Source: Scenedesmus sp. PABB004 (taxonomy: Eukaryota). From it: a DNA stretch of 64,000 nucleotides. Below the pieces are notes generated by a model that did no database searches, had not been told where the DNA came from, and saw only the letters and a list, made by a program, of their open reading frames with translations. Below, piece after piece: positions 342 through 21,000 of the stretch (positions are counted from its first letter, which is position 1; each line of letters opens with the position of its first letter). The position numbers were made by a program, and so were the translations under genes. The stretch is taken from assembly GCA_014905635.1 (NCBI GenBank), contig JABVCE010000026.1, positions 248,001 to 312,000 on the forward strand, written 5' to 3'.

Positions 342-804
342 GGGGCCGGCCCGGCGCTCGTGTGGGCGCGCCACGCAGCTGCGCGCCGCAGGCGCCGCGC
401 TGCGTCGGCGCGCTCCCGCCACGGTCGGGTCTTCGCTGATCGGCGGGCGGGCGGCGGCGCCGTCGCTCCAACCAACCAGCACTGCGAACCCTCTGCACTA
501 GTACTAGGGTTCAGGGTGTCAAACCCTAACACCGCACTTGCGTATGCGTTTTTCCCCCAGCGCCCGGCGGGGGGCAGGGGGCGGAGTGACCGAGGCGAGC
601 TGGCCGCGGCAGGACTCGGCCGGCGCTGCGGCCGTGCAACCGTTGCAAGGACGCCGGCGCCCTTACCGCCTCTCGCCGCCCCCGCCGCGCAGCACGAGCT
701 GCAGCAGCTCCGCCCTCCCGTCCCCTCGCTCCGCGACTCCTCACGCGCGCGCACCGTCGCCCTCGCTCGCCGCGCGCCGCCCTCTCAACTCGGTTGCAAT
801 TCGC

Positions 805-2114
805 TCACTCGCGCGGCGCGCCGGCGCCGGCGGGCGCGTAAAAGTCGCTCACCGCGCACAGCCAGGCGCGGCCCGGCGCGCCGGCGGGCGCGCCGGCGGG
901 CCCGCTGTCGCGCGCCTCGCCGAGCAGCACGAGGCGGCGGTAGAGGCCGAGGGCCCAGATGGGGAAGATGTTCCTGCCGGGGTTTTAGGGAGAGCGAGGG
1001 GACAGGGTTTAGGGAGAGGGGATGGGGTGAGGGAGGGAGCGAGGGAGCGGCGGGGAGCGCGGCGGCGAGGCGAGTGCACGGGCTGCGCGGCGGCGCGGCG
1101 GCGCGGCGGGGCGGCGGGGCGGCGGGGCGGCGCGCGCGCCTGTAGTTGGCGTATGTGATCATGCAGTTGCGGTTGAACACGCCGCTGATGTGCTGCTGCG
1201 GCCAGTCGCCGCTGTCGCACTGCGCGCGCATGAGGTACGCCGCCGCGCTGCGGCGGAGGGAGAGAGGAGAGGGTGCGCCGCGCGGCGGGCGGGCGGGCGG
1301 CGGGCGGGCGGGCGGGCGGGCGGGCGGGCGGGCGGGCGGGCGGGAGGTGGGCGGCGCGGCGGCGGCGAGCGGGCCCTCCCACCGCGCGGCGATCGACCGC
1401 GGCGGCGCGCACCGGTGGAGCGGCTTGGCGTCGGCTGCGTGGTACCCGCCCGCCAGCAGCGCCATCATCGCCCACGCGGTGTTGACGACGTGGCTGTCCC
1501 CCTCCAGCTGGCTGTACACCTGAGCGCCGCGGCGCAGGCGCGGGCCGCGCGCAGGCAGGCGTCGGCGCGGCGCGGCGGCGGTGCCGGCGGCGCGAGGGGC
1601 CGCACCCCGCGCCCCGCGCTCGCTCGCGGCGCCGCCGCCAAACCCCAAAACCGCCCCCGTGCCTGCCCGCCTCGCACCTTGTCCTGGCAGGAGAGGTAGC
1701 TCTCGCCCCACCCGCCGTCGAGGCGCTGCTTGCTGACCAGGAACTCACACGCGCGGCGCACCGCGGGGTCGCTGCCCGCGCTGTGCCCGCGCGCGGCGAG
1801 CGCAGTCACGCCAAACCAGGTGCCGTACGTGAAGCACACGCCCCAGGAGCCGTACCTGCGCGGGCAGCAGGGGGGAGGCAGGGAGGAGGCAGAGGCGCGG
1901 CGGGCGGGGGCGGGGGCGTCGAGGGCGGCGCCACGGCCCCAGGGCGGCGCGCGGCCCAGGGCGCCGCCGTGGCGCACCACGAGCCGTCGGGGCGCTGCAC
2001 GCGGCGCACAAACGCCTCGGCCCTGTCCAGCGCGGCCGCGATCTTGGGCGCCCACCTGGGGGGCACGCCGGCCGGCCGGGCGGGCAGGCGGCGCGGCGCG
2101 CGGGTGAGCGCAGC

Positions 2115-2155
<41 letters not shown>

Positions 2156-4974
2156 GCCGGGCGGGGGTCGCGCGCGCGGTCGGGGCGCGGCGGCGGCGCG
2201 GCGGCGGCTGGCGCTTGCGGCGGCGCAGCGCGGCGCGCACGAGGTGCCCGGGTGGAGGCGCTGGAACGCGGTGAGCGCTGTGACGCAGGCGGAGGTGCAC
2301 TCGACGTAGCTGTAGTCGACGATGATGTCGCCAAACGTCTCGGCGGGGTTGAGCACCTGCGGGCGGGGCGCGGGCGCGTGCGTGTGTGGGTGTGCGAGTG
2401 CGTGAGTGTGGGTGGGTGTGGGTTGGGCGTGGGTGGGGAGAGAGAGGGGAAGAGAGGAGAGAGAGGGGGAGAGAGCGTGGAGCGCGGGCGGCGTCGGGAG
2501 GGCGCTGCGGCGGCGGCGTGCGGGGGCGGCGTGCGGGGGCTGCGGGCGCTGCGGCGTCGCCGCGCACCTCGAGCCAGTGGAAGGAGCGCGTGTTTTCGTA
2601 CGTCGCCATGCCGCCGTCAGAGTTCTGGCCACGGCGGAGGGCGCGGGCGCGGGCGCGGGTCAGGCAGTCGACCGCAAGCGCGTGTCAAGTTCAGACGCCG
2701 GGGGGTCCGAGCGCCCTGTATTCAGCGTGTGCGGGGGGGAGGGGGGGGGACCTTAACCCCCCACCTGGTAGCTCAGGATGACGCGCACCGCCTCCCCCAG
2801 CCGCTCCACGCTGATCGCCGGCCCCACCACGCCCGGCCGCCCCAGCGCCGCGAGGCCGAGCGCGGCCTTGAAGCCCTCGCTCGTGCAGTCGCTGATGGGC
2901 CACCCGTGGTCCCTGAGCGACGCGGCGCGGCGCGGCGCGCGGCGGGGGTTCGGGCACCACGCGCCGCGGCGCAGCAGGCGCAGCGCGGCGCAGTCGCGCG
3001 GCGCGGCGCTGCGCCCACGGTCCCCCCCCCCCCACACACACACAACACACACACAACACACATCCACGCACCGCGTGCTGAAGGGCCACGCGCCCTTGCT
3101 GATGTGGCGATAGAACTTGCCCAGCGGCGCCTCCGCCTCGGTCACCACCTGGCTGGCCTCGATGTACGCGTGCGCCTTGGCCAGCGCCGCGCCCGCGACG
3201 TCGGGCAGGCCGCAGTCCAGCATCGCCTGGCGCGGCGCGCGGCCGCGCGCAGGGGTCGTCGGCGCGGGGGCGCGCGGCCGAGGCGGCCGGGCAGCGCGCG
3301 GGGCGCGGCGGCCCGCGGCGGCGCGCGTGCTGCTGCGCGGCCCGCCCGCCCCGCCCCGCGCGCACCTGGGCCGCAAAGGAGGTGTCCCAGAGCTGGCTGC
3401 CGTTGTAGCCCTGGCCGAGCCGGCAGCGGGAGGGGCGCGGGGGCGGGGCGGGGCGTGAGTCCGGGCCGCCGCCGCGAGCCGCTCGGCCGCACATGTGACA
3501 CCGAACCCCGCTGCACCCTCCCACTGCGCCGCCCGCCCCCAGAAGGCCCCGCCCCGCCCCTAAAACTGCCCCGCCACTGCGCCGCCCGCCCCCAAGCGCC
3601 TCCCAAGCGCCCCGGCAGCCCTAAACCCCACCTGCATCTTCATGCCGTCCTCCGCCACCCACAGGTAGTCGTACACGCGCGGGAGGTGCCTGCGCAGCGC
3701 AGCGCACGGTGGCAGCGGCGGCGGCGGCGGCGGCGGCGGCGGCTGTGCTGTAGGCGGCGACAAGCGGTGCGGCGGCGCGGCGCGGCGTGGTGCGGCGCGC
3801 GGCGGCGTGGTGGTGCGGCGCGCGGCGGCGCGCGGCGCGGCGCGCGGCGGCGTGGTGCGGCGTGGTGCGGCGCGGCGGCGGTCACCGCTTGAACGCGTCA
3901 CTGTTGGGGTCCTCGAGCCAGCAGGCGAGCATGTTGATGACCTGGCGGGGGCGAAGAGGAGCAGGCAGAGGGAGCGCCGCGGGTCAACAGAGAGAGGCGC
4001 GGGCCGAGGCGGGCGGGCCGAGGGGGTCGAGCGGCAGAGCGCCCGGCGCGTGCGGCCGAGGGGGAGCTGCCGCGAGGCCGCCGCGCGTGCCCTCGCGTCG
4101 GCGCGCTGCAGTCCGTCCTCAGGCGCACGCAGGAGGACGACCTGCAGCGCGCCGACGCGAGGGCGCAGCGCGGCGGTCCAGCCCCCGCTCGCGTCGGCAG
4201 CATTGCAGGTGGGCCGAGGGGGTCGAGGGGCAGAGCGCTCGGTGCGTGCGGCCGACGGGGAGCCGCCGCGAGGCCGCCGCGTGTGCCCTTGCGCTGGCGC
4301 GCTGCAGCCGGCGCGCAGGCGTGCGCCTGAGGACGGACTGCAGCGCGCCGACGCGAGGGCGCAGCGCGGCGGTGGCCCAGCCCCCGCGCGCGTCGGCAGC
4401 ACTGCAGGTGGGCCGAGGGGGTCGAGGGGCAGAGCGCTCGGCGCGTGCGGCCGAGGGGGAGCCGCCGCGAGGCTGCCGCGCGCGCTGCGCCCTTGCGCCG
4501 GCGCGCTGCAGCCGGCGCGCAGGCGTGCGCCTGAGGACCGACTGCAGCGCGCCGACGCGAGGGCGCAGCGCGGCGGTGGCCCAGCCCCCGCGCGCGTCGG
4601 CAGCATTGCAGGTGGGCCGAGGGGGTCGAGGGGCAGAGCGCTCGGCGCGTGCGGCCGAGGGGGAGCCGCCGCGAGGCTGCCGCGCGCGCTGCGCCCTTGC
4701 GCCGGCGCGCTGCAGCCGGCGCGCAGGCGTGCGCCTGAGGACCGACTGCAGCGCGCCGACGCGAGGGCGCAGCGCGGCGGCGGCCCAGGCCCCGGCGCGC
4801 ATAAGAGGCGTCAACGATTGATCGCACGGGTTTGAAGAAACGGTCAACCCGGGTGCATCACCCAGTGCAGCAAGGTGGTTCGTCTCACCTTGTTGACGGG
4901 ACCAATGTCGATGTAGCGCGTGTTGGCGTCCTCGTAGTGCACGTGCGCCATGACCTGTTGCCAGGGGTTGTGCG

Positions 4975-5011
<37 letters not shown>

Positions 5012-7366
5012 GGGGGGGAGGGGAGGGGGGAGGGAGGCGAGGGGGGGCGAGAGACGAACGTGAGGCGTGCGCGCGGCGTGCGCGGCGGGCGCGCCGGCGG
5101 GGCGCGCGCGGCGCCGCGCGCGCGGCGCGCGCGGCGGCGCGCGCGCGCACCTCCTTGAGCGCCCAGCGCCGCAGGCGGCTGCCCAGCAGCACCGCCTCGG
5201 CCTTGTACAGCGCCCACCACAGCACGTCCTGTGGTTGGCGCGTGTGGGAGGGGCGGGGGCGCGGTCGCGGCGGCGTGGCACACGGCAGGAAGAGCACAGC
5301 CCACAGCGCACTGCTCTCTGCTCACAGCGCGCACAGCGCGCACAGCGCGCACAGCGCGCACAGCGCGCACAGCGCGCACAGCGCGCACAGCGGTCCCTCG
5401 CACCTGCACCAGGGGGTGCGGGTAGTACAGGTCCTCCTTGGCGATCTGGCTGCGCGCCGCGTTCCAGTCGATGCTGCCGTACGGCACCGGGTACAGCTCA
5501 CCCCTGCCGCGGCGGCGGCGGCAGCGGGTTGGGGCGGGCGCGGGCGCTGCCACCACCGGCGCGGCTGGGCAGGCCCGCAGCGCGCGCGGCGCGGCGCGGC
5601 GGCGCGGCGTGCAGCGCGCCTGATTGCGGCGGTGAGGGGCGTCTCCTTGCAGGTGCCGCGCACGCCGTACACGTAGCTCATGGGCAGGTAGACCTAGGGT
5701 TTAGGGGCCAGGGGGAGGTGCGCAGGGTTCAGGGTTTTGTTCGACACGGGCGCGTGTGCGTGTCAGGGGTTGCCCGACGCGCGGCGCCAGGCGGCGGCGG
5801 CCCGCGGTGCCAGGCGGCGGCCCGTGGCCCGCAGCGGCGGCGCGCAGCGCGCACCATGCGGCAGTGGCACCAGAACCGGCCCGGGTGCAGCCAGCCGACG
5901 CCCGTCGCGGCGCTGTAGGGCAGGAGCCACATCTCCGGCGACAGCGGGTTCTGGCCGTCCCAGCTGTAAACGCCCAGCACGGAGAGCCAGAACTTGCCCC
6001 AGCTCGTGATGTGCGTCGCGCCGCCGCGCGCGTGGATCTGTGCGGCGCCGGCGCGGGGCGGCGGCGCGTTGGGTTGGGGCGCAGCGGCGCGCGCGGAGGC
6101 GCGGCAGTGGCGCGCGTCGGCGCGCGCCGCTGCAGGGCCCGGCCGGCGCGCGGCAGCGGCGGCGCGGGTCTCACCCATTTGCGCGCGGCCACGACCTCGG
6201 CGCGCTCCGCGTCCTCGCCCAGCAGGCGCAGCGTCACGTAGCTGCGGCGGCGGCGGCGGCGGGCGCGGCGTCGGGTCGGCCGCGGCGTCGGCGCACGAGC
6301 GCGCGCGCGCACGAGGGAGAGGGCGAGAGAGAGGCAGAGAGGCGGACAGGGCCGGGGCGTGCAGCGGCGCCAGCGCGCCGCGCCTGAGCGCGGTGCCAAA
6401 CATGGTGGACGTGCCCTCGATGTGCAGCCCAAAGCCGCCGTCGGGGTTTTGGTGGTTGTAGAGGTACCGCACCTGCGCGGCGCGCCACGTGGGCGGGCAG
6501 CGAGCGAGGCGCGGCGCACGCGCACGCGCAGGCAGGCCGTGAGGCGCAGCGTGCAGGCGCAGCCGCCGCGTTGCCGGCCCCCGCGCACAGCCGCCGCGCC
6601 GCCGCCGGCCGCCGCCGCCGCACCATCTCCGCCTGCGCCTCGGGGCGCAGCACGTCGCCGAGCACGCCGCAGGTGTACAGCGCGATGACGAGGCCGGGCA
6701 TGAGGAACATGGGCCCGCCGTAGTCGCCTGCGCCGCGACGCGGCCGCGGCGGCGGTCGCATGGCGGCAGCGGCCGCGCGGCGGCGGCGGTCGCACGGTGG
6801 CGGCGGCGGCAGCTGCGCTGCGCCGCGCGGCAGCGCGCGGCTGCCGCGCCCGCCAGCAGCGCCTGGCCGCGCGCCAGGCGCTGCTGGCCGCGCGCCAGGC
6901 GCTGCTGGCCGCGCGCCAGGCGCTGCTGGCCGCGCGCCAGGCGCTGCTGGCGGGCGCGGCAGCCGCGCGCTGCCGCGCGGCGCGACGTGTCGCACCGCGC
7001 CGCCGCACCCGGGAAGTGGCCGTCATCGGCCTGCAGGCACTCATAAAAGGCGAGCGCGCCCTTGAGGTGCGCCTCGACCGCGGGCGCGGTCGGGACCTCG
7101 CCTTCCGCGACGCGCTGCCCCGCCGGCGGCGGCGCGTGCGCCTTGGCCGCGACGCGCTCCGCCGCCTGCAGGCGCAGCAGCTCGTCGCCGCTGTGGCGCT
7201 GCACGTGGCGGTTGGCCGTGAACGCGGCCCGCGCCGCGTCCGCCGCCGAGCGCTGCTCCGGCGTGCCCGCCGCCGCGTCCCAGACCCAGGTCTGGCGGCC
7301 CTGGTTGCCGTTCAGGCTGGTCAGCAGCGGCCCGCCGACGTCGGCGGCGCTGAGGAAGCGCCACAT
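805..7366 (-). CDS. CAS1: Cycloartenol synthase (2,3-oxidosqualene cyclase), about 20 exons
   Basis: Spliced exons read MWRFL...[159 protein letters not shown]. The Y of GYNGSQ and the H/I of DHGWPI are the cycloartenol-type residues. ATG 7364-7366, TGA 805-807. Confidence 0.96.
4015..4790. repeat. ~200-bp tandem repeat (about 4 copies) with internal inverted repeat, inside a ~950-nt CAS1 intron
   Basis: GGGCCGAGGGGGTCGAG recurs at about 4015, 4211, 4410 and 4614; the units are near-identical; 23-bp perfect stem 4089-4111/4142-4164. Confidence 0.92.
5323..5391. repeat. 9-bp tandem repeat (CACAGCGCG)n in a CAS1 intron
   Basis: About 7.5 direct copies. Confidence 0.9.
6820..6983. repeat. 48-bp perfect inverted repeat enclosing a 21-bp tandem repeat, CAS1 intron 1
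   Basis: 6820-6867 is the exact reverse complement of 6936-6983; GCCGCGCGCCAGGCGCTGCTG is repeated about 4 times between and into the arms. Confidence 0.9.
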
Positions 7367-8335
7367 GCTGCCGTGCTTTGGGGGCTCGCGGCCCGCCGCT
7401 GCTGCACCGCCGCCGCCGCCGCCGCCGGGCCGCGCGCGTGTGGCCGCGCCGCCTGCTCTGAGGGAGCGCGTGCACGCGCCGGGCGCGACCGCGCGCGAGC
7501 CGGGCGGGGCGCACTGCCGGGGGCGCGCACTGGGGGCGCTGCGGTGTGATGGCGCGGCGCAGCGCCGCGGAGCGGCGTGGCGGGCTGGACGGGAGCCGTG
7601 CGGCTGCGCAGTCGTGTGGGTCTGCACGTGGACGCAGCGCGCGGGCGGGCGCCGGGCAGGAGCGGGCGCGCGGGGCCCGGGCAGCAGGGCGCAGCTCCGC
7701 GGCGTCGAGTGGTGTGGCGACGATCGCGGAGCGTGCGCGGGCGACCTTGCTGCGCCAGCGCGATTGGCTGGCGGCGGTTGCCAGCTGCCAGCTGCGCGGC
7801 CGGCGCGCGCGCTCGGCCGCGCCGGCGGCGGCGGTCCGCGGCGCTCCGCGGCGGCCTCGGGCCTCGGGCGCGGCCTGGCGCCGCGCCAGAGAGCAGAGGG
7901 AGCTGGGGGTGGCCGCTGCTGCCCCAGACGCAAGGGCGTGGCAGCGCGCGGCGCGTGAGCGCGCGCCGCGTCCGCCGCGCCCGGCGGCAGCCGCCGCCGC
8001 CTCCGGGCGCGCATGGAGCGATCGGGGGACGGGGATCGAGGGCGGCAGGGCGGACTCGGAGGCCTGATTGGCTCAAGGGCACGGGGTTTCTGAGACGTGC
8101 ACGCAGCCGGGTCCGGGCTAGCCCGCTCGCGGCCGGCCCTCCGCACCCACACCACGCTGCCCGCCTGGGACTGGGCGCACGCGCACCTGCAGCCGCCCGC
8201 CCGGGCCCGCGAGCAGCAGCAGCAGGGCCGCCCCAGGCGGCCCCTCCAGCGCCCTCGGGCTGCGCCTGGGAGGCCCCAGTGTCGGCCCCCGCGGCCGCCG
8301 GCGCCGGCGCGGCGAGGGCAGCAGCAGGTGGCGAG

Positions 8336-11300
8336 ATGGCATCGGACCACCTCGCGTCCATCGCGGCGCTGGCCAACGCCTTCGTGGAGCGGCAGGTCGT
8401 GGCCCGCGCCAAGGTGAGCTGGGCGTGCGCAGGGCGGGAACGGGCTCGCCTCGGGCGCGGGCGGGCCGTCGTGGCATGCTGCCCCCAGCTCACGGCCGCA
8501 CCGCGCCAGGCGGGCGCCTACGTGCCGCCGGAGATCACGGCGCCGTCAAAGCTGGAGCACCTCTACGGCTGCGCCGCCTGCGGCTTCTCTGAGGTGCGGC
8601 GGCGGGGTGGGGCGGGGCGCGCGTTGGTGAGGCCGCGGCCGGCGGCCCGCGCATGTGGCGGCGGCGGCCCCTGGCAGCCAGCCCCTGGCCCCGCCATCTC
8701 GGGCGCCGCCGCGCCGCCGCGGCTGCTGCCGCCACGGCGGCGGCCGCCGGCCGCGGCGCGGCCCGCGCTGCGATCGCGGCCGCCGCGCCGGCGCGCCGCG
8801 TGGCGCTGCCGCCGACTCGCGCGCCCGCCCGCGCCCGCGCGCCGCAGGCCGGCTGCAAGGGCTGCTGGGACGAGCCGCTCGGCTCGCGCCCCGCGTCGCG
8901 CGCCAAGCCGCGCGCGGGGCGGCCGCCGCCGCCGCTGCCCGACGCGCCGACGTTCCGCCCCACGGCCGAGGAGTGGGCCGACCCCTTTGCCTTCCTGTCC
9001 TCCGTCGCGGCGCAGGCGGCGGCGGGCGGCATCGCCCTCATCATCCCGCCGCCCGGGTGGGCGCCGCCGGTGCAGATGCTCGACCAGGACACGGGCCTGC
9101 TGCGCACCAACTTCCGCGTCCCCGTGCGCATCCAGCCGACGCACCTGCTCTGCAAGCGCCACCCGACGCCGTCGGGCGCGCCGCCGTCGCCCGCGGCGTC
9201 GCGCGCGGGCAGCCCCGCCGCCGCCGCCGCGGCCGCGCCGCCGAGCGGCGCCGGCGGCGGCGGCGCCGGCGGCGCGACGCCCAAAAAGTCAAACGCGGTC
9301 GTGGGGCGCTGCAGCAAGGCGAGCGTGGCCGCGGCCGCGGTCGCGACGCTCGCGGCGGTGGAGGCGGTGGAGGCCGAGGCGGCCGCCGCGGCGGCGGAGG
9401 GGCGCGAGCTCATCGCAAACCCCGCCCACTGGGACGCCGTCGCGGCGGCGGCCGAGGCGGGGGAGCAGTTTGGGTATGAGCACCTCGACGACCCGCTCAG
9501 CCTCCACGACTTCCACAGGCGAGGGTTTAGGCTCAGGCAGCGCGGCACGGCGCGCGCCGCCACCGCGCCGCAGCACGACGCAGCGCGCAGCCTGACGCGC
9601 CGCCGCCGCGGCGCCGCACGCCGCAGGTACGCGGACTGGGCCAAGCGGCGGCACTTTGGCGGCCCGCTGATGGCGGGCGCGCCGCGCCGCGCGCCGCCGC
9701 CGGCGGTCGCGGGTGGCGCGCCGGGCGCGCTGCCGGTGGACACGGCGAGCGCGGCGTGGCGGACCGTGCCCTGCACGCCCGCGGTGCGCGCGGCGCGCGG
9801 CCTGCCCGCGCGCTGGCTGCCCGGCACCGCCGCGCCGGCGGCCGCCAAGGCAGACGGCGACGACGACGGCGAGGGTGAGGCAGACGGCGAGGAGGAGTGG
9901 CAGGTGCGGGCGGCGGCGCCGGCGCCGCGCCAGGGCCGGCCCCGACGCGCGCGTGCCCACCTGGCCCTCTCTCCCTCACACACACAAACTCACTCTCTTG
10001 CGCACGCGCGCGCGCGCGGCAGGAGCCGAGCGTGGAGGAGGTGGAGGCCGAGTTTTGGCGCATCGTCGAGGCCGCGGACGAGCAGGTGGAGGCGCTGTAC
10101 GGGCAGGACATTGACACGGCGACATACAGCAGCGCCTTCCCGACAATCAAGGCGCGGCGCGCGGCGGCGAGCGGCGGCGTGTGGCGGCGGCCCGCGGCGG
10201 CGGCGGCGGCGCACGCTGCGCGCTGCGCGGCGGGGCTGACGCGCGCGCGTGCCCGCCGGCGGCGCAGGAGCTCGCGTCGGCCGAGGCGCGCAACCTGTTT
10301 GCGCCGGCGGGCGGCCCGGCGCCGCCGCGCGGGCCGCGCGGCGCGGACGAGGGCGCCGACGCCGCCGACCCCGCGCGCTGCTTCGAGACGTGCGGCTGCG
10401 GGCGCTGCGGCCTCTGCCGCCTGCGCGCGTACGCGGGGCACCCGTGGAACATCAACAACCTGCCCCAGGCGCGCGGGAGCGTGCTGCGCTTTGTGCGCGA
10501 GGACGTCGGCGGCAAGCCCATCACGGGCCTCATGGTGCCCTGGGTCTACGTCGGCTCCTGCTTCTCCGCCTTCTGCTGGCACATTGAAGACCACGGGCTC
10601 TACTCGATCAACTACAACCACATCGGCGCGCCAAAGGCGCGCGCCGAACGCCGCCGCGCGCGCTGCGCCAGCGCCCGCCGGGGCGCGGCCGCCGCCGGGG
10701 GCGCGCCCGCGGCCGGGGCCGACCCCTCGCCCCGCGCCCGCGCCGCGCAGGTGTGGTACGGCGTCCCGCGAGCGCCGCGGCAGCGCTCGAGGGCGCGATG
10801 CGCGACGCGCTGCCGCACCTCTTTGCCGTGGACCGCCTGCTGCTGCACAAGCTCGTCACCATGCTCTCGCCGCGCGAGCTCGTCGCGCGCGGCGTGCCCG
10901 TCTGCCGCGCGGTGCAGGTGCGCAGCCGCACCCCCCCTGCCCCTCTGTCTGGGCGCCGCGCGCACGCCGCGGCCGCCGCGCTCACGCCGCCGCCGCCGCG
11001 CGCACGCCGCCGCGCTCACGCCGCCGCCGCGCCGCCGCCAGGTGCCGGGCAGCTTTGTGGTGACCTTTCCCGACGCCTACCACGCGGGGTTCAACTCGGG
11101 GTTCAACGTCGCGGAGGCCGTCAACTTTGCGGCCCCCGACTGGCTGCCCTTTGGTAGCTCCAGCGTCGTGCGCTACCGGTGCGGCGCGGGGCTGGGGGCC
11201 ACGCCGCGCCGGCCCGCGCGCGCCGGCGCGCCGCCTCGCCGGCTGCTGACCGCGCGGGCGTGTCGCCGCGCGTCCTGTGTCCACCGCCAGGTGTGAGCGG

Positions 11301-18025: not shown

Positions 18026-21000
18026 ATGGCGCCCCACGCCGCGTCTGGCGCGGAGCCACTCCGCCGAGAGATCTGGGAGGTCACGGGCGTGAGCGCGCAG
18101 TGCGCGGGCAGCTCAGGTAGGCCCGCGAGGCAGTGCTGGCTGGCGGAGCAGCTGCGGCCGCCGCGTGCAGCCGGGGCGGAGGCGCGGCCTGCGGGGCGGC
18201 GCGTCTCGCAGCTGGTGGCACAGCACACCTGGGAGCGGGCGGGCGGGTGGCGGCTGCGGCCGCGCGGCGGCGGCGGCGGCGCGCGAGGCGTCGCTCACTG
18301 CCACGCCCGCTGCCGCAGGTGGCGCCGCCGCGCACTCGCACTGGCTCAGCTGGGGCGGCGCGCGCTGGCAGCTGAGCGCAACCTTCCTGCCGGCCGAGGA
18401 CGCGCTGGCGCTGGCGCTGCGCTGCCGCCCGGCGACGGCCGGCGGCGCCGGCGCGCAGGCGCCGCGCGCGACGTACGCGGCGCTCCACGTGCTGAACCGC
18501 CGGGCCGGCGCCGACGGCGACTGTGGCGCGGCGCACGCGAGCGCCTACCTGCCGCCGCACGTGTTTGGCGCCGCCGCGCCGGAGCTGGGCGTGGCGCGGC
18601 TGCTGCCGCTGAGCGCGCTCACCGCGGCGCGCTCGCCGTTTGTGGTCAACGACGTGCTGCAGGTCGCCGTGGAGCTCAGCGCGTCGCCGCTGGCCAGCGC
18701 CGCGCTCGCCGCGCTCGCGGGCGGCGGCGGCGGCCGCCCCGCGGCGTCGCCGTTTCCGCCGATGTTTGGCGGCGGGCTCGACCGCTTCATGATCGGCGCG
18801 GCGTTTGCGGAGGTCCGGCTCGCGCCCCTGGACGGCGGCGACGCGGAGCACGGCGGCGGCGCCGCGGCGCCGCCACTGCTGGCGCACCTCTCCCGGCTCG
18901 CGGCCGTGTCGGGCGTGCTCGCGGCGGAGCTGCCGCCGCGGCTCAAGGGCCTGCGCGCGCGGCCGCAGGGCTTTGCCGGCCTCGCCGCCGCTCAGCCGGC
19001 GGTGCGCCTCGACGCCAGCCTGCCCGTGCTGGCCGCGTTCCACCGCCTGCTGTACGAGCCGGAGGTCGCGCTGCCGCCGGAGCTGCTGCAGGGCCTGCAG
19101 CGCCTCGCGTCCGACTACGCGATGCCCGAGCTGGCGGCCTGGGTGCTGCAGCAGGCGGCGGACGCGGGCCTGGCCCTAGCGGCGCCGTGCGGTGAGCGCC
19201 GGCGCACGCGCGCGGGCGGCGGCGCGGGAGGGCGCGGCCGTGCCCTCGCGTCGGCCGCGCTGGCTGGGGCGCTGGCTGGAGCGGGCGCCCGGGCGCGCCC
19301 CTGAGCTGCTCCGCCCGCCCGCTGCCCGCCGCCAGGCCGCAGCGGCGCCGGGCGCGTCGAGGTGACGCCCGTGCCGGAGCCCGCCGCCGAGCAGCCCCGG
19401 CGCGGCCCCAGCCTGGGCGGGGGCACAGTCAAGCTGTCGGCGCCCGCCGAGCTCCGGCGCGGGCTGTCGGCCGGCGGCTGCAGCGAGCCAGGTAGCGCGC
19501 GCTCGAGCTCCTGCGGCGGCGCGGCGGCGCTGCCGCGGCGCGGGTCGCCGGAGAAGCAGCCCGAGGCGCGCAGCTGTGGGCGCGAGCGCTTTGTGCGGGC
19601 GTGCTCCATCTACGAGGCCGCCCTGAGCACGCTCGAGGCGGGCGGCGAGCACGGCAGCTCGCCGCGCAAGGGCGCCAGCCTGGCGCAGCAGCTGACGTTC
19701 TGGAAGCAGCAGCAGGAGCTGCTGCGGCAAGAGCGCACCAAGCTCCCGGGCAGCGCCCGGCCGCCGGTGCGCGCCGTGATGCAGCCGCGCGCGCTCGGCG
19801 CAGGCGGCGCCGGGGCCAGCCCCCGGTGGGGCCTGGCCAGCGCGGGCAGCCCCCGGCAAGCCGTGGGCAGCCCCCGGCGAGCCGTCAGCAGCCCCAAGCA
19901 CAGCTACGGCGCGCGCTGGTCGCAGCAGCAGCAGCAGCAGCGGCAGCAGCGGCAGCAGCAGTCGCCCAGCCGCGCCAGGCTCGCCGGCCGCCGCGCGGTG
20001 GCACCAGCAGTGAGCGCGGCGGCTGCCGCCGCCGAGCCTGGCACGCCCGCGGCCGGGCAGGACGGCGAGGGCGCGCCCGGCAGCGGCGTGCTGGGCAGCT
20101 TCAGCTTTGAGCGCTTCACAGGCGGCTGCTGGGACCCGCTGGCGGAGGTCCAGGCGATGACCGCCGCCGTGCTGGGCCGCCAGGCGACGGCCGGCGCGGC
20201 GGCCGGCGCCCCGGCGACTGGCAGCACCTCAGCGGCGGGGCAGGGAGCGGCAGCTGGCGCGGCCGAGGCCAGCGCGGGCGCCGGCGCGGGCGCGGGCGCC
20301 GCGCCGGCCGGCTGCCTGGCGTACGCCGCCATGAGCCCGCTGATGTCCGTGCAGGAGATGGCGGACGCGGTGCTCCGCGCCAAGGCTGCGAGGGCAGGCG
20401 CCCAGCAGCCGCAGCAGCCGCCACCGCCGCAGCAGGCGCCGGCCGAGGTCGGCGCCGCCGCGAGCGCGGGCGCCGCGCCGGCCGGCTGCCTGCCCTACGC
20501 CGCCATGAGCCCGCTGATGTCCGTGCAGGAGATGGCGGACGCGGTGCTCCGCGCCAAGGGTGCAAGGGCAGGCGCCCAGCAGCCGCAGCAGCAGCCGCAA
20601 CCGCCGCAGCAGGCGCCGGCCGAGGTCGGCGGTGCCGGCAGCGGCAGTGCGGGCGCGGTCCGCGAGCAGCCCGCCAGCCGCCAGGCTTGCTGGGAGGCGT
20701 TTGACCCGCTGGCGGGCCTGCAGGCGATGGCGGCCGAGGTGCTGGCCAGGAAGGGCCACAGCGGCGGCGCCGCGGCCGCTGCCGTGCCCGCGCCCGCGCC
20801 CACGCGCGCGGCGGGGGCGGCGGCCGAGCAGAGCGGTGGCGCCAGCGGCGCCGCTGCGGAGCCGGCGAGCGCCGCGGCAGCGTACGCCGCGCTGGGCCCC
20901 TTTGCCGACGTGCACAGCATGACAGCGGCCATCCTCAGCCGGCGCCCGACGCCGGCGCTCGCCGAGCAGGCGCCCGCCGCTGTGCCGACCGGAGGCCCCG

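Follow-up and report, generated by a model that had tools for sequence, protein, structure and literature searches.

Why should pieces of a telomere-type repeat lie at the ends of introns in the left part of this locus, and do they mark the birth of those introns or a change to introns that were already there? The window, i.e. the whole stretch of 64,000 nt that was analysed, carries such pieces in and around a cycloartenol synthase gene (CAS1), a gene of sterol synthesis, and its JmjN/JmjC neighbour. The original prediction had described G-strand copies in the 5′ part of introns and C-strand copies before acceptors, and had read them as scars of telomerase-assisted break repair co-opted as splice or branch signals, a possible route of intron remodelling or gain. 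Every sequence quoted there was found in its place when the letters of the window were checked. The observation was confirmed as a whole and the interpretation was partly supported: the telomere repeats at intron ends are a real local oddity, the making of new introns by telomerase does not follow from them, and remodelling of old intron ends by the repeats is possible. That TTTAGGG is of telomere type holds, since it is the telomerase product in three Sphaeropleales, including one Coelastrella (TRAP table of PMC3318450), and the type is judged from that product rather than from the chromosome ends of this strain.

The CAS1 coding region occupies 805-7366 on the minus strand and is split into 21 exons by 20 GT/GC-AG introns, as given by exact spliced mapping of the annotated protein P0002 (797 aa, 100% identical), which had one solution only; the N and C domains of SQHop_cyclase (Pfam) are present, and 20/20 junctions are seamless without indels against nine homologues. 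The top segment of the whole window in the profile scan (42.2 bits) lies in intron 5 (5694-5854, minus strand, exact gene model), whose last 45 nt (5695-5739) are made up of six C-strand units that follow one another in 7-nt register (CCCTGAA CCCTGCG CACCTCC CCCTGGC CCCTAAA CCCTAG), an array in which the middle units have decayed and the outer ones are intact. In transcript sense the intron ends with AAAACCCTGAACCCT...CCCCTAAACCCTAG| at 5694, one exact run stands 1 nt and the other 37 nt away from the 3′ splice site, and the acceptor AG (5695-5694) is the AG of CCCTAAACCCTAG|. The junction CHCRM|VYLPMSY across this intron is invariant among homologues, and among 56 short read-through ORFs from relatives 42 share the intron position. 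The exact gene model and the homologue junctions together show, at the level of predicted splicing, that the repeat holds the acceptor AG required to join CHCRM to VYLPMSY, as had been claimed for one acceptor of this gene.

Intron 11 (3411-3631, minus strand; exact gene model and repeat matches) has a G-strand copy, GTGGGGTTTAGGG, at the donor (3631-3619) and a second one, TTTTAGGGG (3565-3558), 67 nt downstream of the donor. At its position 46 of the 91 matches from relatives break after EDGMKMQ, 42 of the 46 going on with V, and the same position is found in sequences resembling land-plant genes. An apparent break of P0017 at this intron was dropped, as the annotation skips exons, and the read-through of P0226 after exon 11 has just 4 of 12 residues alike to CAS1 here. 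Intron 20 (974-1139, minus strand, GC donor; exact gene model and profile scan) has two C-strand copies, CCCTAAACCCT and CCCTAAAACC, with exact runs 30 and 10 nt from the acceptor and profile scores of 29.0 and 14.1 bits. Both lie within a tract that is G-run-periodic on the plus strand (981-990 and 997-1033), and 997-1033 comprises roughly five G-run units without a strict 7-nt register; 30 of 71 relatives (short ORF-type) break here, after ITYANY|R. Two further CAS1 introns are less distinct. Intron 18 (1520-1677) has a looser G-strand-like tract, GGTTTTGGGGTTTGG (1638-1652, minus strand, 18.8 bits), which starts about 25 nt behind the donor and includes 0 exact repeat 7-mers, and its position was seen in read-through ORFs of 5 relatives by manual reading of 21 flagged rows. 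The donor of intron 14 (2625-2764) is weakly G-strand-like (GTGGGGGGTTAAGG, 2751-2764, minus strand), and its 14.3 bits fall in the noise range of the remaining window, which makes it a weak case only.

The comparison of CAS1 introns among relatives that had been proposed was thus made for positions, and the positions prove old: introns 5, 11, 18 and 20 show same-codon breaks in relatives, so that recent gain found no support in any of them and, as far as predicted intron positions can show it, all four are old. Intron gain, part of the earlier interpretation, is therefore contradicted, because these positions are common to many relatives. A metagenome scan with CAS1 gave 79 loci at identities of up to 67%, all from distant relatives, and among the 20 loci examined one intron was present in 2 and zero introns in 18, so that this set did not serve for an intron-by-intron comparison.

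The neighbouring gene, with JmjN and JmjC domains, has a 108-nt intron with a GC donor (9519-9626, plus strand, 19.4 bits) that starts with GCGAGGGTTTAGG. This intron is in frame and stop-free, so the open reading frame continues through it, and it is supported by a 36-residue gap exactly there in the Tetradesmus orthologue P0124. In addition, we observed a repeat cluster that the original prediction had not noted, after the CAS1 stop codon and between convergent genes (487-533; 22.2, 19.1 and 13.6 bits). It reads GAACCCT ... TAGGGTTCAGGGT ... AAACCCTAAC with orientation switching twice, and it has the 12-mer ACCCTGAACCCT in common with intron 5; hairpins predicted for 487-533 were not significant versus shuffles (z = -1.56). 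Moreover, AAACCCTA is exact at 521-528 (plus strand) and 5695-5702 (minus strand), and AAACCCT occurs at four further places. Six loci in about 9 kb carry the repeat: three CAS1 introns with two copies each (5, 11 and 20), a fourth with the looser tract (18), the JmjC intron and the spacer after CAS1. All are internal, in non-coding DNA within or between genes, and most copies are about 1.3-2 units long, those outside 5695-5739 and 997-1033 measuring 1.3-1.7.

Repeat copies are far above composition expectation in the first ~9 kb. Counted in any phase on both strands, the TTTAGGG repeat has 26 exact 7-mers in the window, of which all lie within 505-9531 and 0 in the other 54.4 kb, which bears out the scarcity reported for the rest of the window, and 44 of 52 cyclic 6-mers lie before 9.6 kb. 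The shuffle comparison that had been suggested, run within the window, gave 5 exact TTTAGGG matches against 0.25 expected, a count reached by 0/100 shuffles. The perfect 10-mer GGGTTTAGGG occurs three times, at three loci; with up to one mismatch it matches 8 times where 0.35 would be expected, each time before 9.6 kb and once (18-27) inside an exon, and with up to two mismatches 33 times where 13.55 would be expected, both counts exceeding all of 100 shuffles. The 33 divide into 22 in the first 9.6 kb and 11, about chance, in the other 54.4 kb. The top seven segments of the profile scan (18.8-42.2 bits) all lie before 9.6 kb, and the best one beyond it scores 16.5 bits, in coding sequence. 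Predicted non-coding DNA amounts to 6,411 nt in the first 9.7 kb (A+T 16.6%, 43 A/T-rich patches) and 28,661 nt in the remaining window (A+T 15.9%, 193 A/T-rich patches), so that non-coding A+T is alike inside and outside the cluster and composition does not account for it. Among the A/T-rich 7-mers of the CAS1 introns (4,168 nt in all), only (TG)n and (TC)n are more frequent than telomere words. The window, which is about 80% G+C, is also rich in GC-rich micro- and minisatellites (78 TRF rows); a 204-nt tandem repeat of CAS1 intron 9 has no dispersed copies elsewhere in the window, and Rfam gave 0 families at gathering score over the whole window.

The polarity held as predicted, with, in transcript sense, G-strand copies at 5′ ends and C-strand copies at 3′ ends in 4/4 introns with exact runs and in 6/6 when the weak introns 14 and 18 are included, and in the four introns the exact runs stand 1, 3, 3 and 10 nt off the nearest splice site. 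A general 5′-G/3′-C skew of introns, which the original prediction had also considered, stands on the 3′ side, where 20/20 CAS1 introns are C-rich over the last 50 nt, and fails on the 5′ side, where 6/20 are G-rich. The suggested role as a general splice or branch signal is not borne out, because about 109 further introns predicted in the window lack the motif. A-containing words are scarce near intron 3′ ends, as only 9/21 introns have a canonical YTNAY branch word within their last 75 nt.

We presume, with a probability of about one in two, that these copies are short interstitial telomeric sequences of TTTAGGG type that were added to older introns, eroded, and kept by constraint at the intron ends. 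The array at 5695-5739, with six head-to-tail units in register at a non-terminal site, is what such a sequence would look like, and by analogy with known cases a telomerase or repair origin is plausible. Most likely, the introns came first and would have received the repeats through telomerase-type synthesis or when a break or nick was repaired on a telomere template, the tracts would then have been worn down by the A/T to G/C drift of the genome, and copies would have stayed recognisable where an intron end constrains sequence, solely in the tolerated orientation. A G-strand copy would prolong a GTGGGG-type donor or G-run, and a C-strand copy would suit the universally C-rich 3′ tract and supply TAG together with words that contain A and resemble a branch site; on this view the polarity would reflect which copies survived rather than how introns originated. 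The local clustering might stem from a subtelomeric position or from a rearrangement breakpoint close by. Several observations weigh against this explanation: most copies are short, the TTCAGGG variant seen twice (507-516 and 5725-5734) may mean that one locus was copied from another instead of being newly synthesised, breaks repaired at random would not be expected to leave six loci in 9 kb and not one in the other 54 kb, the polarity is based on 4 to 6 introns, and C-richness alone would favour the polarity of the 3′ copies.

Among the alternatives, the one that survives best, although we consider it unlikely, is that the copies are cis-elements kept by selection. As DNA they might be telo-box-like sites for telomere-repeat-binding Myb proteins regulating the CAS1/JmjC locus, and as RNA intron-end sites for G-strand-binding hnRNP-like proteins (GGG/UAGGG-type enhancers) together with branch and pyrimidine signals. 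Intact copies adjoining splice sites with decayed units between, the persistence of A/T-containing words in ~80% G+C DNA, the exact AAACCCTA on opposite strands at two sites, the paucity of YTNAY words and the boost to splicing from intron-end GGG and hnRNP A/B sites in mammals (PMC1326234) all speak for it. However, some 109 other predicted introns manage without the motif, and plant telo boxes flank the transcription start according to PMC3022908, whereas the divergent promoter shared by CAS1 and the JmjC gene (7367-8335) has 0 repeat 7-mers and only one 6-mer, GGGTTT at 8084. Further, it is conceivable, if doubtful, that telomerase-type additions repeatedly furnish old introns with ready-made intron-end modules, the polarity being kept by selection and CAS1 being a hotspot. 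With G+C at ~80%, splice signals that contain A/T are rare, and C-strand copies could serve as pyrimidine tract, A-rich branch region and TAG acceptor, and G-strand copies as donor-proximal G-run or UAGGG enhancer.

We give no better odds to a regional cause, namely that the left part of the window, itself part of a 527-kb contig, lies or once lay near a rearrangement breakpoint or the end of a chromosome, and that telomere seeds would have been scattered there as such a site healed and recombined again and again; this is compatible with later addition to old introns. Every locus lies in the first 9.6 kb and none beyond, and the Tetradesmus obliquus orthologues of the two adjacent genes have locus tags 29 apart on one 6.2-Mb contig, therefore gene order near here differs in one of the two lineages. 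Against such a cause, the chromosomal orientation of the copies is mixed, unlike a single fusion point, and the genes are conserved housekeeping genes.

A chance by-product of skewed, low-complexity, slippage-prone introns, in which stray T and A residues fell into telomere-like order, is improbable. It could draw on the abundance of micro- and minisatellites, the strong C skew at intron 3′ ends, the mild lean toward the same polarity among weak profile matches outside the cluster, and the looseness of introns 14 and 18, but it does not account for counts that no shuffle reached, for three loci with the perfect 10-mer, or for the remaining window, where 0 repeat 7-mers occur although composition does not differ there and non-coding DNA is 4.5 times as abundant. 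Least probable, and contradicted at the predicted introns 5, 11, 18 and 20, is that introns or intron ends were born by rejoining two telomerase-healed break ends. The geometry fits: whichever strand is read, healed ends joined head to head begin with the G-strand and finish with the C-strand, and so would a transposon whose inverted terminal repeats are telomere-like, in agreement with the minus-strand CAS1 and the plus-strand JmjC gene. However, the two-ended scar that had been envisaged is present in 0 introns, the four positions are common to many relatives, the lengths of introns 5, 11 and 20 (161, 221 and 166 nt) are ordinary for CAS1, and the six motif-bearing sequences and the spacer share only telomere words of up to 13 nt and GC-rich low complexity, with no sign of introners or inverted terminal repeats.

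Interstitial telomere repeats within introns are already known; a limited literature search found no report of telomere-type motifs at green-algal intron ends, and PMC7215372 regards the splicing effect of intronic interstitial telomere repeats as an open question. What stands out here is a repeat unit that forms the predicted acceptor of an ancient conserved intron, with other copies abutting donors in the opposite orientation. If the polarity holds genome-wide, it would connect the insertion of telomere repeats with the way a genome of extreme composition renews its splice signals, and would offer a clean system in which to test whether telomere-like words act in splicing; a pattern found at this locus alone would be a curiosity, perhaps the trace of a breakpoint or of an earlier chromosome end.

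Several known systems resemble these copies in part. Mammalian GGG and hnRNP A/B or F/H sites near intron ends aid intron definition, and the proteins also bind telomeric single strands (PMC1326234); G-triplets and UAGGG-like words close to intron ends are shared, but those sites are mammalian and act at the RNA level, and the likeness, an analogy, would explain just the donor-side G-strand copies here. Plant telo boxes (AAACCCTA), for which Gaspin et al. 2010 proposed non-processive telomerase addition at free 3′ ends (PMC3022908), are likewise single genic units of the same repeat type, with a core that occurs exactly in our window; they are concentrated around the transcription start, in the 5′ UTR and the flank before it, and pair with site II or TEF elements, whereas the copies here lie at intron ends and the promoter is without a 7-mer. 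In Caenorhabditis, 63% of interstitial telomeric sequences are in introns and a contribution to intron evolution has been suggested (PMC6800518). There too, degenerate and perfect repeats occur, depleted from exons and UTRs, but they are genome-wide and tied to small RNAs and silencing marks, and the available sections of that paper describe no splice-site adjacency or polarity. Previous studies of mammalian short interstitial telomeric sequences describe insertion during double-strand-break repair, with one-step telomerase insertion proposed (PMC2246262), and 31% of the human ones are in introns, a share judged consistent with random insertion (PMC7215372). Like those, which are absent from exons and often intronic, the copies here are internal and consist of a few exact or near-exact units; unlike those, the copies here, presumably inserted, cluster in a 9-kb locus and adjoin splice sites with strict polarity, and one of them itself supplies a predicted acceptor.

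Telomere-type motifs, CCCTAAACCCTAG and GGGTTTAGGG among them, exceed chance at the locus of CAS1, the minus-strand cycloartenol synthase gene, and of its plus-strand neighbour, the JmjC gene. TTTAGGG was matched five times in the window against 0.25 expected, and GGGTTTAGGG, which was also the word of the mismatch search, eight times with at most one mismatch against 0.35 expected, all eight before 9.6 kb and one of them exonic (18-27). Up to two mismatches gave 33 matches of GGGTTTAGGG against 13.55 expected, 22 of them before 9.6 kb and 11 across the remaining 54.4 kb, about the level of chance there. Exact cyclic 7-mers of the repeat numbered 26, every one of them between 505 and 9531, which bore out the original prediction that the motif is nearly absent from the remaining ~54 kb, and 44 of the 52 cyclic 6-mers were before 9.6 kb. 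In a profile scan allowing for A/T-to-G/C decay, the top seven segments (18.8 to 42.2 bits) were again all before 9.6 kb, and the best beyond it (16.5 bits) was in predicted coding sequence. The G+C content is ~80% across the whole window, in agreement with the 78.5% tabulated for strain PABB004 (PMC12571836). A rough coding-potential segmentation, trained on the CAS1 exons and also recovering the JmjC exons confirmed by Tetradesmus, assigned 6,411 nt of non-coding DNA to the first 9.7 kb versus 28,661 nt to the rest, with 16.6% versus 15.9% A+T and 43 versus 193 A/T-rich patches, an equal density. Outside CAS1, only one of ~109 predicted introns (gaps between neighbouring same-strand coding segments) contained the motif, namely the JmjC intron, and within the CAS1 introns (4,168 nt) only (TG)n and (TC)n were commoner than telomere words among the A/T-rich 7-mers.

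A search with the translation of one conserved exon returned a 797-residue protein, 100% identical, named GgCAS1 of Scenedesmus sp. PABB004 and located on a 527-kb contig. Exact spliced mapping of this protein had one solution only, 21 exons from 7366 to 805 on the minus strand, with 20 introns of the GT-AG or GC-AG type; all 20 junctions were seamless in the alignment with nine full-length green-algal homologues, and the squalene-cyclase N and C domains were found with Pfam. The neighbouring gene begins near 8336 and has JmjN and JmjC domains (Pfam). Its quoted intron is real, because the Tetradesmus orthologue leaves a 36-residue gap exactly at 9519-9626; these 108 nt are in frame and without stop codons, so that retention would add 36 residues rather than truncate the protein. 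The two genes are head to head, with start codons ~970 nt apart (7367-8335), and GC-AG introns are frequent in them (CAS1 introns 3, 6 and 20, donors 6383, 5619 and 1139, or 3 of 20, and the JmjC intron, donor 9519).

Every sequence quoted in the original prediction was found in the window. In the transcript sense, G-strand (TTTAGGG-type) copies are at the 5' ends of introns: intron 11 starts with GTGGGGTTTAGGG, followed by TTTTAGGGG 67 nt further, with 61 nt between the two copies, and the JmjC intron starts with GCGAGGGTTTAGG at its GC donor (9519, plus strand), while the looser cases are GGTTTTGGGGTTTGG ~25 nt behind the donor of intron 18 and the weak GTGGGGGGTTAAGG at the start of intron 14. 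C-strand (CCCTAAA-type) copies are at the 3' ends, where intron 20 runs into its acceptor with CCCTAAACCCTGTCCCCTCGCTCTCCCTAAAACCCCGGCAG and intron 5 with AAAACCCTGAACCCTGCGCACCTCCCCCTGGCCCCTAAACCCTAG. The intron 5 tract consists of six units in strict 7-nt register (CCCTGAA CCCTGCG CACCTCC CCCTGGC CCCTAAA CCCTAG), intact outside and decayed in the middle, where the changes are mainly A to G or A to C. The two good copies of intron 20 are part of a longer tract with G-runs spaced 4 to 11 nt. In the four introns that bear exact runs, the distance to the closest splice site is 1, 3, 3 and 10 nt, and second copies are 37 nt (intron 5) and 30 nt (intron 20) from the acceptor. A further cluster, absent from the list of the original prediction, occupies 487-533 in the spacer between convergent 3' ends, where GAACCCT, TAGGGTTCAGGGT and AAACCCTAAC alternate in orientation. 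The TTCAGGG unit GGGTTCAGGG is present at 507-516 and 5725-5734, two loci that also have the 12-mer ACCCTGAACCCT in common, a possible sign that one locus was copied from the other or that a variant repeat recurs.

The polarity proposed for these copies is consistent in the motif-bearing introns, in four of four with exact runs and in six of six when the weak introns 14 and 18 are included; it is suggestive rather than proven, with few loci only. The last 50 nt are C-rich in all 20 CAS1 introns (mean skew -0.38), and the C-strand orientation at the 3' end is therefore favoured by composition. Near the 5' end, however, only 6 of 20 are G-rich (mean skew -0.02), so that a general skew alone does not account for the G-strand orientation there, although the donor copies overlap GTGGGG or GCGAGGG donor sequences; of the 5'-G/3'-C intron skew considered beforehand, only the 3' half holds in CAS1. 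Weak matches in the rest of the window tend mildly towards the same polarity.

The claim that a repeat supplies a splice acceptor was upheld for intron 5, which can have its acceptor nowhere but here, because the junction must yield CHCRM/VYLPMSY, a sequence that does not vary among the ten aligned proteins, and the surrounding sequence offers no second AG. Branch signals in CAS1 are weak, since of 21 introns only 9 have a canonical YTNAY word within their last 75 nt; other introns have CTGAC, CTCAC or TTGAC words ~35 to 73 nt from the acceptor. CTGAAC and CTAAAC in introns 5 and 20 are candidate branch sites. Just upstream of the intron 8 acceptor, a near-homopolymer of ~70 G on the plus strand (4976-5047; C in the transcript) is an extreme pyrimidine tract.

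Public gene calls on the contigs of relatives often run on past the end of an exon into the intron behind it, and a similarity break at the same codon then marks an intron there. For intron 5, 42 of 56 short matches break after CHCRM into V and unrelated sequence and 14 are contiguous; for intron 20, 30 of 71 break after ITYANY/R, 31 are contiguous, five end there and five are without an anchor. For intron 11, 46 of 91 break after EDGMKMQ (42 of the 46 go on with V) and 37 are contiguous, and many of those that break have A/T-rich sequence and, on our reading, resemble genes of land plants; at intron 18 the break comes after SCQxK, in five read-through ORFs. The suggested intron gain is thus contradicted, as the positions of introns 5, 11, 18 and 20 are also found in relatives. 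Since relatives break at the same codons, the motif-bearing introns are, on sequence comparison, old, and the repeats would have been added to introns already present or have taken the place of parts of them. At intron 19 (1248-1412), which lacks the motif, almost all read-through ORFs of relatives that cover exon 20 continue unbroken into exon 19 and only one, P0169, looks interrupted, so this intron may be lineage-restricted.

Two tandem repeats of other kinds were observed. Intron 9 is 947 nt long, compared with 116-281 nt for the other 19, because of a 204-nt unit in 3.9 copies (4015-4800, 93% matches, internal inverted repeats) that was not found elsewhere within the window; a 174-nt unit in 2.0 copies (94% matches) is at 20277-20631 amid predicted plus-strand coding segments.

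The copies are most likely short interstitial telomeric sequences. In three Sphaeropleales, one of them a Coelastrella, cloning of the telomerase product gave TTTAGGG (PMC3318450), which is regarded as the ancestral repeat of green algae (PMC3318450, PMC8226300). For the short interstitial telomeric sequences of mammals, addition by telomerase at breaks or free 3' ends has been suggested (PMC2246262, PMC7215372), and telomerase-mediated addition also for plant telo boxes (PMC3022908). What the sequence shows is the anatomy of the copies today and that the introns are old; we infer that telomerase-type addition would have occurred at breaks or free 3' ends within existing introns, that the inserted tracts would then have eroded, and that copies would have been kept where, and oriented as, intron ends tolerate or use them. 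A live rival is a functional reading, in which proteins would bind the motifs in DNA or in RNA; it is compatible with the pattern of preservation but loses weight, as the motif is missing from every other intron of the window and from the promoter that the two genes share. The two-ended scar of break repair that had been envisaged does not fit, as no intron has the 5' G-strand and the 3' C-strand copies together. Nor do the motif-bearing introns have anything in common beyond GC-rich low complexity and words of up to 13 nt, and both results speak against a transposon or introner family. For the clustering of six loci of interstitial telomeric sequence in 9 kb, a present or former chromosome end and a rearrangement breakpoint are candidates, beside which we note that the Tetradesmus obliquus orthologues of CAS1 and the JmjC gene are on one contig with locus tags 29 apart. 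Among known systems, the interstitial telomeric sequences of Caenorhabditis are likewise concentrated in introns (PMC6800518), and about one third of the human ones are intronic (PMC7215372).
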